From the IMG/VR virus record IMGVR_UViG_2541047880_000005: 30,413 nt of DNA. One strand, given 5' to 3'. Numbering within the stretch: the first letter of the stretch is position 1; each line of letters starts with the position of its first letter. Made by a program: the position numbers and the translations under genes. Below, in pieces: positions 1 to 30,413 of this stretch. This DNA comes from a virus (Duplodnaviria; Heunggongvirae; Uroviricota; Caudoviricetes). The notes beneath the pieces were generated by a model. The model was not told where the DNA came from. It ran no database searches and was given only the letters and a program-made list of their open reading frames with translations.

Positions 1-981
1 TTATAACGTCACTCCGCCTTTTAGTGGATTCAGAGCGACGGCATTTTGCAGATAGTCAGGCGCAAGGTGCGCATAGGCCATCGTCTGCTGAATGCTCGCA
101 TGTCCCAGAATCTGTTGCAGTGCGATTATATTGCCCCCATTCATCATGAAATGGCTTGCGAATGTATGCCGCAGGATGTGGGTTGCCTGATTGGGTGGTA
201 TATCAGGTTTCACTCTGCGTAAAATCCCGCAAAATTTCTCATAATCAACTTTGAATAATTTGGCGCTGGCCTCCTCTTTAACTTTTTTCTCCAGTTCCTC
301 AGAAATCGGCACGGTTCGCTTTTTACCGTTTTTGGTTTTCAGGAAGGTAACCCTGCAATTTGTAATCTGTGCTGGTTTTAGCGTGGCAACTTCCGTCCAT
401 CTTCCTCCAGTGCTCAGACATAAAAGCGCGACAAGTAAGTCATCACCAGCCAAAACATTTAACAGTTTTTCGATTTCTGCTTTTTCCAGGAACGTCATTT
501 CAGGGTTGGCCTCCGCCAGTGGCGGCAGTCCGTGAATTGGGTGTTGCCCGGAAAATTCATCCAATTGAATTAATTTTGTGAACATGCCGGATAATCGGTA
601 CATGTCACGGTTTATCGTTGCGGCACTGATACCATCACGTAGTCGCATGGAACGATAATCCATCAAAGCCCTTTTGCTCATCCTGCTCACTGGTATATCA
701 CCTATGCCGCTGATGGTTTTGAGTAGATGATTAAACTCTTTTGTTCCATGCTCGTGGTTTTGCCCGTGATATTTCCACCAGATGTCCAGCAACTCACTCA
801 AAGTCCGGCGGTCTGCTCGCTGGCCTCCCCATTCTTTCTGACTGGCATTGGCGATTGTGTATCGCTCAAATGCTAGTGCTTCAGCTTTTCTTTCGAATTT
901 CCTGCGGATGCGTTTTCCGTCGCGACCGCGAGGTCTAATGTCCACTTCATAGCGACCATCATCGAGCTTCTTAATTGCCAT
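1..981 (-). CDS. int: Tyrosine recombinase, P2-type prophage integrase. Start chosen at the MAIKKL ATG (981), which has a GGAGG Shine-Dalgarno 8 nt upstream; the longer ORF from the ATG at 1011 has none.
   Basis: ORF track 1..1011 minus strand. N-terminus MAIKKLDDGRYEVDIRPRG resembles P2 Int as I recall it. C-terminus carries the tyrosine recombinase box (LRHTFASHF ... LGHASIQQTMAYAHL). First gene of the prophage, followed by C and cox as in P2. Confidence 0.9.
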   Translation of the reverse strand: MAIKKLDDGRYEVDIRPRGRDGKRIRRKFERKAEALAFERYTIANASQKEWGGQRADRRTLSELLDIWWKYHGQNHEHGTKEFNHLLKTISGIGDIPVSRMSKRALMDYRSMRLRDGISAATINRDMYRLSGMFTKLIQLDEFSGQHPIHGLPPLAEANPEMTFLEKAEIEKLLNVLAGDDLLVALLCLSTGGRWTEVATLKPAQITNCRVTFLKTKNGKKRTVPISEELEKKVKEEASAKLFKVDYEKFCGILRRVKPDIPPNQATHILRHTFASHFMMNGGNIIALQQILGHASIQQTMAYAHLAPDYLQNAVALNPLKGGVTL

Positions 982-1050: not shown

Positions 1051-1344
1051 TTAGCCAATCCTTTTCGCGGAGTGGTTGGACTCTGTTGACTCTGGCCCAA
1101 TGTGCGCGAGAGCCGGTGCGATTTGTCCTGCGTCCGGCGCGGTTTTATCTGTCATAAGCCATAGAGCATATTTTTGGAATGTGGGATGCATAGTGATTTT
1201 TAGCAAAGCTGTGCCACCGGGTTCAAAGTTTCCTCCTTCATATTTTTTAAGTGTGCTTAGCGGTAACTCTATGATTTCACAGAATTTTGATTGGCTTAGC
1301 CCTTCAGCCTCACGCAAGGCCTTAATCTTTTCGCTTAATTTCAT
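1051..1344 (-). CDS. C: P2-type immunity repressor C (helix-turn-helix)
   Basis: 97-aa ORF on the minus strand directly upstream of int and divergent from cox. C-terminal part (TFQKYALWLMTDKTAPDAGQIAPALAHIG) resembles the P2 C repressor as I recall it. Size and position match P2 C. Confidence 0.8.
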   Translation of the reverse strand: MKLSEKIKALREAEGLSQSKFCEIIELPLSTLKKYEGGNFEPGGTALLKITMHPTFQKYALWLMTDKTAPDAGQIAPALAHIGPESTESNHSAKRIG

Positions 1345-1755: not shown

Positions 1756-1926
1756 ATGAATGAGCCGCGTTGTATTGCTCAGTTACTGCGTAACGAAAGC
1801 CCCAGGGCGATTGACTTCACCATCACCCACGGGAAGGGTCGCAAGGGAATCATTATCCGCACCAAAAAACAGAGTCCGTTAAAAAAGGCTCTGACCTTTC
1901 TGAAAAGCCGGAGGGTCTGGAAATGA
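1756..1926 (+). CDS. Small early hypothetical protein
   Basis: ORF track 1729..1926; the first ATG after the cox stop is at 1756. Lies between cox and B where P2 carries a small ORF. No recognisable motif. Confidence 0.35.
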   Translation: MNEPRCIAQLLRNESPRAIDFTITHGKGRKGIIIRTKKQSPLKKALTFLKSRRVWK

Positions 1927-2423
1927 CAGTGATGACGCTCAATCTCGTCGAAAAACAGCCAGCAACTATGCGCCGGATAATTGGTAAGCATCTGGCCGTC
2001 CCTCGCTGGCAGGATACATGTGATTATTATAATCAGATGATGGAGCGCGAACGGTTAACGGTTTGCTTTCATGCGCAGTTAAAACAGCGTCACGCAACGA
2101 TGCGTTTTGAAGAAATGAACGACGTCGAACGTGAACGGCTGGTTTGTGCAATTGATGAATTGCGTGGGGCATTCTCAAAACGCCGTCAGGTTGGCGCAAG
2201 TGAGTATGCATATATTAGTTTTTTAACAGTCAGTCAGCGTCGTACTTTATTTATGCATGCCGGATTGACTGAAAAAGAATTCAACCAGCCATACTGGCGA
2301 ATTAATGAAGAGTCATGTTACTGGCGTGATGCTTTATTCCGTGCATTACGTGAATTATTCAGTCTGTTTGAGTATGCACCGACAATTCTGACGTCGGTAA
2401 AACCAGAGCAATATCTGCATTAA
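1923..2423 (+). CDS. B: Replication protein B (helicase-loader-like), P2 gpB homologue
   Basis: 166-aa ORF, the same length as P2 B, in the cox-B-A early operon position. Start overlaps the upstream stop (ATGA). GGAGG-like Shine-Dalgarno upstream. Confidence 0.7.
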   Translation: MTVMTLNLVEKQPATMRRIIGKHLAVPRWQDTCDYYNQMMERERLTVCFHAQLKQRHATMRFEEMNDVERERLVCAIDELRGAFSKRRQVGASEYAYISFLTVSQRRTLFMHAGLTEKEFNQPYWRINEESCYWRDALFRALRELFSLFEYAPTILTSVKPEQYLH

Positions 2424-2444
2424 GTAATTAACCCGAGTTTTTAA

Positions 2445-2472
2445 CGCACTTAATCGTGCGGGGCTTCTTTTT
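2445..2472 (+). terminator. Possible intrinsic terminator or attenuator after B: stem CGCAC/GTGCG with a 6-nt loop, followed by a T-rich tract (GGGCTTCTTTTT)
   Basis: Hairpin and T-run read directly from the sequence. Confidence 0.35.
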
Positions 2473-2486
2473 GCCTGGAGAAAGTC

Positions 2487-2711
2487 ATGCATACAGTTTC
2501 TGAAAATCAGTGCGGTAAATACGCATTACTGCTGCAACAGGCCAGAACCGAAGCACAGGCCGACGCTGCGACGCGCTTTTCTTCTCGTCTTGACGCCATG
2601 ATTCGCCATATCACAAAGGCGGAGTTATCCCGCGTGGAGATAGTCGAGCTGCTCAGTCAGGAGTCGGAAAAATTTCACAATATCGGATTGTCTCGCGGGG
2701 AGGTGCTTTGA
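2487..2711 (+). CDS. Small early hypothetical protein
   Basis: 74-aa ORF with a GGAGAAAG Shine-Dalgarno upstream; in the B-to-A early region where P2 has several small ORFs. Confidence 0.5.
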
Positions 2712-3010
2712 TGTCCTGTTCTCATTCAGTTGTATTACTGAATAACGCCTTAAAAATCGCCGTTATGGAAAATGGTGATTTGTCTCTTATTCAACTTTGT
2801 CTTGATAAAGAAAAACGCGACATAACTGAATCTGTTATCGCGATTTATCAGAATGAATTAAACCTCCTGTCTGATGTGGTCAATTTACTTGTTAAACGCG
2901 CTGTATTCCACAAGCAAATTTCCTCAGTGGATGAACTGACAAAATTAACGACAGAACTTGCCAGTTATTGCGCTGATGTATCCAGGAAACTTAACGATAA
3001 AAGGAGCTGA
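2711..3010 (+). CDS. Small early hypothetical protein
   Basis: ORF track 2708..3010. ATG at 2711 overlaps the upstream stop (TGATG), with GGGGAGG Shine-Dalgarno. AT-rich. Confidence 0.5.
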   Translation: MSCSHSVVLLNNALKIAVMENGDLSLIQLCLDKEKRDITESVIAIYQNELNLLSDVVNLLVKRAVFHKQISSVDELTKLTTELASYCADVSRKLNDKRS

Positions 3011-29055: not shown

Positions 29056-29274
29056 ATGTTTCATTGTCCTTTATGCCAGCATGCCGCACATGCGCGTACA
29101 AGCCGCTATATCACTGACACGACAAAAGAGCGTTATCACCAGTGTCAGAACGTGAATTGCAGCGCCACGTTCATCACCTATGAGTCGGTACAGAGATACA
29201 TCGTGAAGCCGGGAGAAGTCCACGCCGTAAGGCCGCACCCGTTGCCGTCAGGGCAGCAAATTATGTGGATGTGA
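29056..29274 (+). CDS. ogr: Ogr, zinc-finger late-gene transcription activator
   Basis: Within ORF track 28993..29274. Starting at MFHCPLCQHAAHARTSRYITDTTKERYHQCQNVNC (29056) gives 72 aa, the P2 Ogr length, with the C4 zinc-finger cysteines. Last phage gene before the host junction, as in P2. Confidence 0.9.
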   Translation: MFHCPLCQHAAHARTSRYITDTTKERYHQCQNVNCSATFITYESVQRYIVKPGEVHAVRPHPLPSGQQIMWM

Positions 29275-29284
29275 TCACAAAAAT

Positions 29285-29310
29285 AGCCCCTCAGTTGAGG
29301 GGCTTTATTT
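29285..29310 (+). terminator. Intrinsic terminator after ogr: AGCCCCTC AGTT GAGGGGCT hairpin followed by TTATTT
   Basis: Perfect 8-bp stem with a 4-nt loop, 10 nt after the ogr stop. Confidence 0.7.
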
Positions 29311-29402
29311 ATGGTCGATGTGGACGCTATGTGGACAGCGGTTGACATAAATCCATTTATATCATCAGGTTAGGTGCTTTTTTTTGACACCATCCCTGTC
29401 TT

Positions 29403-29429
29403 CCCCCACATGATGTGGGGGTTTTTTTT
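29403..29429 (+). terminator. Strong intrinsic terminator: CCCCCACAT G ATGTGGGGG hairpin followed by eight T. Likely the host-side terminator of the gene upstream of fieF, and possibly the 3' end of a 3'-UTR-derived sRNA.
   Basis: Perfect 9-bp stem and T8 run read directly from the sequence, about 80 nt upstream of fieF. Confidence 0.75.
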
Positions 29430-29510
29430 ATCCTCAATTTGCCTGCTGCTTAATGCATTGCAGATGATTTGCTTCCGTTATACTACCATCAGTTGATAGC
29501 GGGAGTATTT

Positions 29511-30413
29511 ATGAATCAATCTTATGGACGGCTGGTCAGTCGGGCGGCGATTGCTGCGACGGCGATGGCTTCGCTGCTATTGCTGATTAAAATTTTTGCA
29601 TGGTGGTATACCGGGTCGGTGAGTATTCTCGCCGCGCTGGTGGATTCGCTGGTGGATATCGGCGCGTCGTTGACGAATTTACTGGTGGTGCGATATTCCC
29701 TGCAACCTGCCGACGATAATCACTCGTTTGGTCACGGTAAAGCTGAGTCCCTCGCGGCGCTGGCGCAAAGTATGTTTATCTCCGGTTCGGCACTATTCCT
29801 GTTTTTGACGGGTATTCAACATCTGGTATCTCCAACACCGATGACAGATCCAGGCGTCGGGGTTATCGTGACAATTGTGGCGCTAATTTGTACGATTATC
29901 CTTGTCTCGTTTCAGCGTTGGGTGGTGCGCCGGACGCAAAGCCAGGCGGTGCGGGCTGATATGCTACATTACCAGTCTGATGTTATGATGAACGGCGCAA
30001 TTCTGCTGGCGCTGGGGTTGTCCTGGTACGGCTGGCATCGCGCCGATGCTCTGTTTGCATTGGGGATCGGCATCTATATTTTATATAGCGCGTTACGCAT
30101 GGGATATGAGGCGGTACAGTCATTACTGGATCGCGCATTACCTGATGAGGAACGGCAAGAAATTATTGATATCGTGACTTCCTGGCCGGGTGTTAGCGGC
30201 GCTCACGATCTTCGCACGCGGCAGTCAGGGCCGACCCGCTTTATTCAGATTCATTTGGAAATGGAAGACTCTCTGCCTTTGGTTCAGGCACATATGGTGG
30301 CGGATCAGGTAGAGCAGGCTATTTTACGGCGTTTTCCGGGATCGGATGTGATTATCCATCAGGACCCCTGTTCCGTCGTACCCAGGGAGGGTAAACGGTC
30401 TATGCTTTCATAA
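29511..30413 (+). CDS. fieF: Cation-diffusion-facilitator family Fe/Zn efflux transporter FieF (YiiP); host chromosomal gene
   Basis: 300-aa ORF (track 29469..30413, ATG at 29511). Multi-pass membrane protein with a C-terminal cytoplasmic domain; the sequence matches E. coli FieF/YiiP as I recall it. Marks the host flank to the right of the prophage. Confidence 0.9.

Follow-up and report, generated by a model that had tools for sequence, protein, structure and literature searches.

The window, by which we mean the whole 30,413-nucleotide stretch of DNA that was analyzed, carries in order int, genes for C-like and Cox-like regulators, replication genes, P2-type tail genes, D, and ogr (annotated as ogrK in RefSeq genomes), followed by the host gene fieF at its right end (Table 1). 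The integrase was found to be 99% identical to that of Wphi. The int open frame reaches position 1011, 30 nt (10 codons) more than the annotated gene, and would encode 336 aa as against the 326 aa given by RefSeq and by the Wphi ATG. The window opens exactly with the int stop codon, which leaves the phage P' arm and attL beyond its left edge.

Table 1. Features of the int end and of the ogr-fieF junction, with their positions in the window
Feature	Position	Strand	Basis
Tyrosine integrase, Wphi specificity	1..981	-	322/326 vs. Wphi Int; Pfam Int_N and Phage_integrase
ogr (zinc-finger protein activating P2 late genes), final phage gene ahead of attR	29056..29274	+	Pfam Ogr_Delta, E = 1e-21
Phage P arm of attR	29275..29385	+	Contiguous with core and P' arm in free phages R18C and Wphi
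Terminator hairpin of ogr, AGCCCCTC-AGTT-GAGGGGCT	29285..29304		Terminator-like score on both strands
Two direct ATGTGGAC repeats, 11 bp apart	29318..29336	+	P2-type Int arm-binding sites (consensus match)
IHF-like site TATCATCAGGTTA (putative)	29360..29372	+	Read from sequence; one mismatch vs. consensus WATCAANNNNTTR
att core, 47 bp, GACACCATCCCTGTCTTCCCCCACATGATGTGGGGGTTTTTTTTATC	29386..29432	+	CpxQ nt 15-58 plus ATC
Orphaned CpxQ nt 15-58	29386..29429	+	Alignment to annotated K-12 cpxQ
Candidate overlap region CCATCCC	29390..29396	+	7-nt spacer between inverted repeat GACA / TGTC
CpxQ Rho-independent terminator	29403..29429	+	8-bp stem, TGA loop, T8
Host cpxQ-fieF interval, unaltered (fieF upstream region)	29433..29510	+	Identical to K-12 save 29486 and 29488
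fieF, host gene, CDF-family cation exporter	29511..30413	+	Pfam Cation_efflux and ZT_dimer; RefSeq annotation FieF

Between ogr and fieF, positions 29403..29421 read CCCCCACA-TGA-TGTGGGGG and form a hairpin that is followed by T8 at 29422..29429, with 82 nt from the end of this tract to the fieF ATG at 29511. The first-pass annotation, made from the letters of the sequence, had described a 9-bp GC hairpin with T8 upstream of fieF; the hairpin, the T8, and the position were all confirmed, whereas the stem given by RNAfold is 8 bp with a loop of 3 nt, a stem of 9 bp being one pair too long because the ninth pair would leave a loop of 1 nt. The end of the T8 coincides with the annotated 3' end of cpxQ in K-12. 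Terminators were no more numerous in the stretch than expected by chance (3 vs. 1.9 ± 1.7), and the case made here therefore rests on sequence identity and not on the hairpin by itself. With the hairpin that belongs to ogr, the CpxQ hairpin makes a tandem pair of terminators that separates fieF from the phage late region.

The gene order in Escherichia coli K-12 MG1655 is cpxA, cpxR, cpxP, cpxQ, and fieF, with cpxQ annotated as an ncRNA of 58 nt at NC_000913.3 4106330-4106387, which agrees with the earlier statement that cpxP lies upstream of fieF in E. coli. Positions 29386..29510 aligned without gaps to the cpxQ-fieF segment of K-12, with 3 differences (in the hairpin loop, at 29486, and at 29488), and this alignment identifies the terminator of the window as that of CpxQ, as had been suspected. 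The part corresponding to CpxQ nt 15-58 matched K-12 at 43/44 positions and BL21, whose CpxQ allele is the majority allele, at 44/44. The 2 substitutions in the fieF upstream region read ACTACCATCAG in the window vs. ACTAGCGTCAG in K-12, and an intermediate form, ACTACCG, was seen at the same place in strain Z247. To the left of 29386, no similarity to K-12 was found (window ...GGTGCTTTTTTTT vs. K-12 ...TTTTCCTTGCCATA); CpxQ nt 1-14 are absent from the window copy, and phage sequence, GGTGCTTTTTTTT, stands in their place. The window copy has the same nt 15-58, with terminator and U8, as the CpxQ of the cpxP 3' UTR (majority allele), but it is a fragment that lacks nt 1-14, the RNase E site, and cpxP upstream, and it has neither the cpxP-adjacent position nor the full length of about 58 nt of a CpxQ gene. 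The gene that precedes it is ogr, and in related genomes cpxP is located at the other end of the prophage.

CpxQ was reportedly presented by Chao and Vogel in 2016 as an Hfq-dependent sRNA derived from the cpxP 3' UTR. This envelope-stress RNA of E. coli has no promoter of its own, its 5' end being generated by RNase E from the mRNA 3' UTR, and in its Hfq-bound form it represses nhaB, skp, and other targets. Grabowicz et al. also described CpxQ in 2016 (PMC4817254; reviewed in PMC9438474), and its 5' region around U7 pairs with nhaB (PMC10250213).

We also searched the whole window against Rfam, which apparently holds no CpxQ family, and obtained zero matches at gathering thresholds, while a permissive scan returned sub-threshold matches at chance level and Hrs1 on the wrong strand, and nothing else. 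Hrs1 (RF02628), the sole Rfam family scoring notably here, covers the same bases as CpxQ but lies on the opposite strand and below its gathering score of 56.4, with 31.9 bits in the window (29363..29429, minus strand) and 41.4 bits in K-12 (1816..1888, minus strand, of the extracted K-12 cpxP-fieF locus). The Hrs1 model starts with A7 followed by a GC hairpin and resembles the reverse complement of the CpxQ terminator, and since its consensus looks like a reversed CpxQ terminator, Hrs1 may be a CpxQ ortholog that was modeled on the wrong strand.

The attP of P2 is laid out as arm sites, an IHF site, and a core. The P arm of the window does not resemble what K-12 has to the left of CpxQ nt 15, and a promoter scan of this arm passed no candidate that could drive an orphan CpxQ copy. 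The IHF-like sequence in the arm could be an IHF site, judging from this layout. The motif ATGTGGAC occurs 3 times in the window, 2 of these copies being the direct repeats of the P arm, and a matching pair is present in the P' arm at the attL of Ec55; it matches the published consensus of P2-type Int arm sites, tgTGGaCa (PMC3448106).

We assembled an attP from the P arm of the window and the P' arm of the Ec55 lysogen and compared it with free phage genomes. Single-piece matches were obtained in R18C (99.7%, the closest free phage), HQ103 (98.7%), L-413C (97.2%), and Wphi (90.8%), located in each of these phages between ogr and int. Wphi shares with the window prophage the integrase, the identical 47-bp core, the cpxP-fieF site, the P2-type arm repeats, and the ogr-attP-int layout, but the P arms of the two differ at a few bases (e.g., TTTTTTTT vs. 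TTTTTTGT beside the core), and the Wphi P' arm diverges from that of the closest lysogens of the window. Many phages propagated on Yersinia pestis, including HQ103, vB_YpM_50, P37, GMG73, and L-413C, were also seen to carry the Escherichia-type CpxQ core. A matching attB is absent from sequenced Yersinia genomes (PMC3448106), and these carriers probably originated in E. coli or its relatives, with a site that is unusable in Y. pestis.

The att core was defined by comparing the attR of the window, the attB of K-12 and BL21, the attP of R18C and Wphi, and the attL of 4 lysogens. It was identical at 47/47 positions in the window attR, the R18C and Wphi attP, the unoccupied attB of BL21(DE3), and the attL of 2009C-3133, and its flanks diverge at once on both sides, into the phage P arm on the left and the fieF upstream region on the right. 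The core takes in the whole CpxQ terminator, and the overlap between att core and terminator that had been put forward is therefore real. Int specificity, a core that is the same in attP and attB, and arm repeats, by which a Wphi-type attR is recognized, were all found.

The partner junction was read from related genomes. In Ec55 and 2009C-3133, the int end is 100% identical to positions 1-1500 of the window, and attL consists of cpxP, a complete 58-nt CpxQ, the phage P' arm, and then int; cpxP lies directly left of int in both, in support of the earlier proposal that the prophage had integrated in or next to the cpxP 3' region. With H9Ecoli and strain 1000, the lysogens in which cpxP and a full CpxQ adjoin int number 4. 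The RNase E processing site and the first 14 nt of CpxQ stay beside cpxP at attL, and the rebuilt CpxQ of 2009C-3133 matches the BL21 allele at 58/58 positions. From the genomes that share positions 1-1500, we infer that the attL of the window would likewise have cpxP and a full CpxQ beside int, and to the left of window position 1 we would expect a P' arm of approximately 115 bp and then, reversed, ATC-A8-CCCCCACATCATGTGGGGG..., that is, CpxQ and cpxP. It is this rebuilt attL copy, located beyond the window, that serves as the functional CpxQ gene. We hold with high confidence that the feature in the window is the attR of a Wphi-type P2-like (Peduovirus) prophage located inside cpxQ and that the phage copy of the 3' part rebuilds CpxQ at attL.

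The first-pass annotation had also raised the possibility that integration alters CpxQ production, for which the sequence gave no support, since attL holds a full 58-nt CpxQ equal to the majority native allele. With its RNase E site, 5' pairing region, and terminator all retained at attL, CpxQ would be expected to be produced in the lysogen as before, and the exact restoration of CpxQ makes an effect on it unlikely. We nevertheless considered that integration might perturb CpxQ or the Cpx response through a weaker terminator at attL, an altered sequence after the U-tract, or antisense read-through from Pc-C-int, and we regard this as improbable. In some lysogens, such as Ec55, the rebuilt CpxQ is off by a single G-to-T change at the stem base (position 2372 in the extracted Ec55 attL locus), which gives GGGGT + T9 and a 7-bp stem with a predicted -14.4 kcal/mol vs. 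-17.4 kcal/mol in K-12. The sequence 3' of the U-tract changes at attL from CTCAATTTG to AATTACTTAC, and in the P' arm of the Ec55 attL (locus 2386..2500), no terminator-like site was predicted on the minus strand from the int stop codon to CpxQ, across which repressor-int transcripts of a lysogen might continue, in antisense, into cpxQ and cpxP. However, the full GGGGG + T8 is present in most attL, with 44/51 attL-like copies beginning GT or GC after the motif and matching the majority native CpxQ at 58/58 positions; the G-to-T variant is found at unoccupied sites as well (SCEC020022; 5/83 species-representative attB); and occupancy of the site is tolerated by approximately 15% of complete E. 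coli genomes. This variant was present at attL, attR, attP, and unoccupied attB alike, and may have arisen as a polymorphism in its own right or been left behind by an earlier round of integration and excision. The stem-base G/T was considered as a marker of the exchange point and discarded, because T was seen at unoccupied attB, too, as well as in part of the attP copies.

Less probable again is that the phage-linked copy (at attR, or at attP in lytic growth) would be processed from ogr read-through into a short Hfq-binding mimic or competitor of CpxQ. The copy lies in sense orientation 111 nt after the ogr stop codon, is preceded by a U-rich stretch, and has kept the terminator with its U8 tail, and identity to CpxQ nt 17-58 is retained in every attP lineage examined, whatever its arms. 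Such an RNA would, however, have the terminator of ogr upstream of it and a P arm with no predicted promoter-like site, and it would lack the nhaB-pairing 5' region around U7 (PMC10250213), and the requirement for a rebuilt CpxQ at attL accounts in full for the length of the identity. We give only a small chance to a prophage that is non-neutral for the Cpx response, be it through constitutive antisense Pc-C-int transcription into cpxQ/cpxP or through an Hfq-binding RNA from the phage-linked 3' module; if true, widespread P2-like phages would tune envelope-stress signaling in approximately 15% of E. coli strains.

The reading of the feature as an attR inside cpxQ leaves the parental origin of the hairpin to be assigned, for which we used a polymorphism in the loop of the CpxQ terminator. 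At window position 29413, the base is A in the window and in BL21 and C in K-12 (position 1871 of the extracted K-12 cpxP-fieF locus). Loop A was found in approximately 80% of E. coli genomes and at 83/83 intact sites in representatives of other Enterobacterales species. In a sample spread over all 5,426 complete E. coli genomes, approximately one sixth matched K-12 perfectly and most differed by one base; the loop C of the K-12 laboratory reference is the derived minority form. The A of the window was discarded as a sign of phage origin, since it is the majority native allele, carried by BL21 and by that large share of E. coli genomes. Only hosts with loop C are informative on origin; in the window, both parental alleles would be A.

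Loop A was present in all of the 11 attP-like copies (9 from IMG/VR and 2 from reference phages) and in 1 phage-flanked GTDB copy. In H9Ecoli and strain 1000, two loop-C hosts whose prophages differ slightly, the loop base is A at attL and C at attR. Across the IMG/VR and GTDB samples, loop C was identified in 0/49 attL-like vs. 3/54 attR-like copies. A loop-C attL query had no perfect match among 531 E. coli attL sites of the Ec55 P' type (best 99.0%), and for a loop-C attR query a 100% match exists in E. coli. Since attL carries A and attR carries C in loop-C hosts, strand exchange takes place to the left of the loop at 29413, on the evidence of these two other lysogens and the population counts. 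By the same comparison of sequences, the loop, the 3' arm, and the U-tract at attR are the original DNA of the host, as the label "host-side" had implied for the terminator, and the CpxQ of a lysogen ends in phage DNA. That the hairpin is a phage terminator downstream of ogr that resembles the one of CpxQ, with the host junction to its right, is scarcely credible: the attP of free phages does contain an identical hairpin, likewise oriented and placed after ogr, and the origin of any base inside the 47-bp identity block is unreadable from the window alone, but loop-C hosts keep their C at attR and never show it at attL, where the phage A is found, which makes the attR hairpin host DNA from the loop rightwards and leaves the 5' arm alone as a part that could be of either origin.

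On the other side, attP lineages lose identity with the host just left of CACC. With the loop on the right and this identity edge on the left, the exchange is confined to approximately 25 bp, within which CCATCCC is the candidate overlap region.

In this integration inside cpxQ, CpxQ nt 15-58 and the ATC that follows are brought in by the phage attP as a 47-bp copy, and the tyrosine Int exchanges strands near the left end of this block. The resulting attL consists of cpxP, the CpxQ 5' end of the host, and the 3' part of the phage with its terminator, together giving a complete CpxQ, and the original CpxQ 3' part of the host lies at attR, behind ogr, where it is fused with the P arm of the phage. 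The displaced host terminator keeps its native position upstream of fieF, with the fieF upstream region untouched. The hairpin at attR would still terminate transcription, now that of read-through arriving from the late genes and ogr, and fieF would stay insulated by the CpxQ hairpin and the ogr terminator at 29285..29304. The need to rebuild CpxQ at attL accounts for a core that, at 47 bp, is much longer than strand exchange requires, and an identity edge at the 3' end of the sRNA is the pattern expected of a phage that replaces the end of an RNA gene, as tRNA-targeting phages do (PMC3448106).

We examined how common occupancy of the site is and how far it extends beyond E. coli. Among the 5,426 complete E. 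coli genomes, 4,592 had an intact site and 834 (15%) a split one, with the ogr-core-fieF junction as in the window in 598/834 of the occupied genomes. The 29-nt central motif was found exactly in many genera, including Salmonella, Citrobacter, Klebsiella, Enterobacter, Kosakonia, Kluyvera, Serratia, Mixta, and Erwinia, and the order cpxP-core-fieF was identified at no fewer than 78 species-representative loci, at least approximately 25 such loci having an integrase, ogr, or an insert of 0.6-2 kb at the site. Among the matches listed, the integrases at these Enterobacterales sites were 60-100% identical to the window Int. The attP arms differ between lineages, and identity through CpxQ nt 17-58 was kept in all that were examined, its right edge being the CpxQ 3' end. 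In several species representatives, 0.6-2 kb of extra DNA without a recognizable int or ogr lies between CpxQ and fieF, and Citrobacter amalonaticus P55 has two copies of the core 1.8 kb apart (locus 1051..1079 and 2889..2917). These inserts resemble what would remain of elements that once occupied this site and have since decayed.

The attachment site itself is already known: it has been published, the phage type is known, and it is common in E. coli. Position 4104392 of the older MG1655 version corresponds, by a shift between versions that we take to be 1,977 bp, to about 4106369, inside cpxQ. That older coordinate is the integration site given for Wphi and L-413C (PMC3448106). In E. coli W, a prophage is listed as "cpxP-fieF Wphi1 (P2)," and P2-like prophages are also found at the rybB and cyaR RNA genes (PMC3032704), while a study of O157:H7 reported a 31-kb prophage between cpxP and fieF (PMC7609406). 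P2-type integrases were classed as integrating "between other genes" (PMC3448106), CpxQ having been described later, and our search of the open-access full-text literature found no paper linking the Wphi att core to CpxQ. What the present analysis adds is the mapping of the core to CpxQ nt 15-58, the evidence for a host/phage chimeric CpxQ, and the use of the site across Enterobacterales; to specialists, it will be neat and not surprising.

There are practical consequences for annotation and for RNA studies. The proper label for the hairpin and for the junction at 29386 is a Wphi-type attR that includes CpxQ nt 15-58, and not a free-standing terminator or a new sRNA. Such lysogens have two copies of the 3' 44 nt of CpxQ, to which short RNA-seq, RIL-seq, and CLIP reads multi-map, and the CpxQ that they make is a host/phage chimera. 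The present case extends the familiar rule that phages target the 3' ends of conserved RNA genes and supply a replacement, the target here being an sRNA processed from an mRNA 3' UTR.

The same replacement-3'-end logic is known from phage 186 (tRNA-Ile), Fels-2 (ssrA), and the P2-like prophages at rybB and cyaR. In these phages of RNA genes, as here, the block of identity starts where strands are exchanged and stops where the RNA gene ends, the rebuilt copy has int beside it, and the old 3' end is found at the far junction. The targets of the 186 and Fels-2 type differ from the present one, which is an sRNA that is processed from an mRNA 3' UTR and has no promoter.
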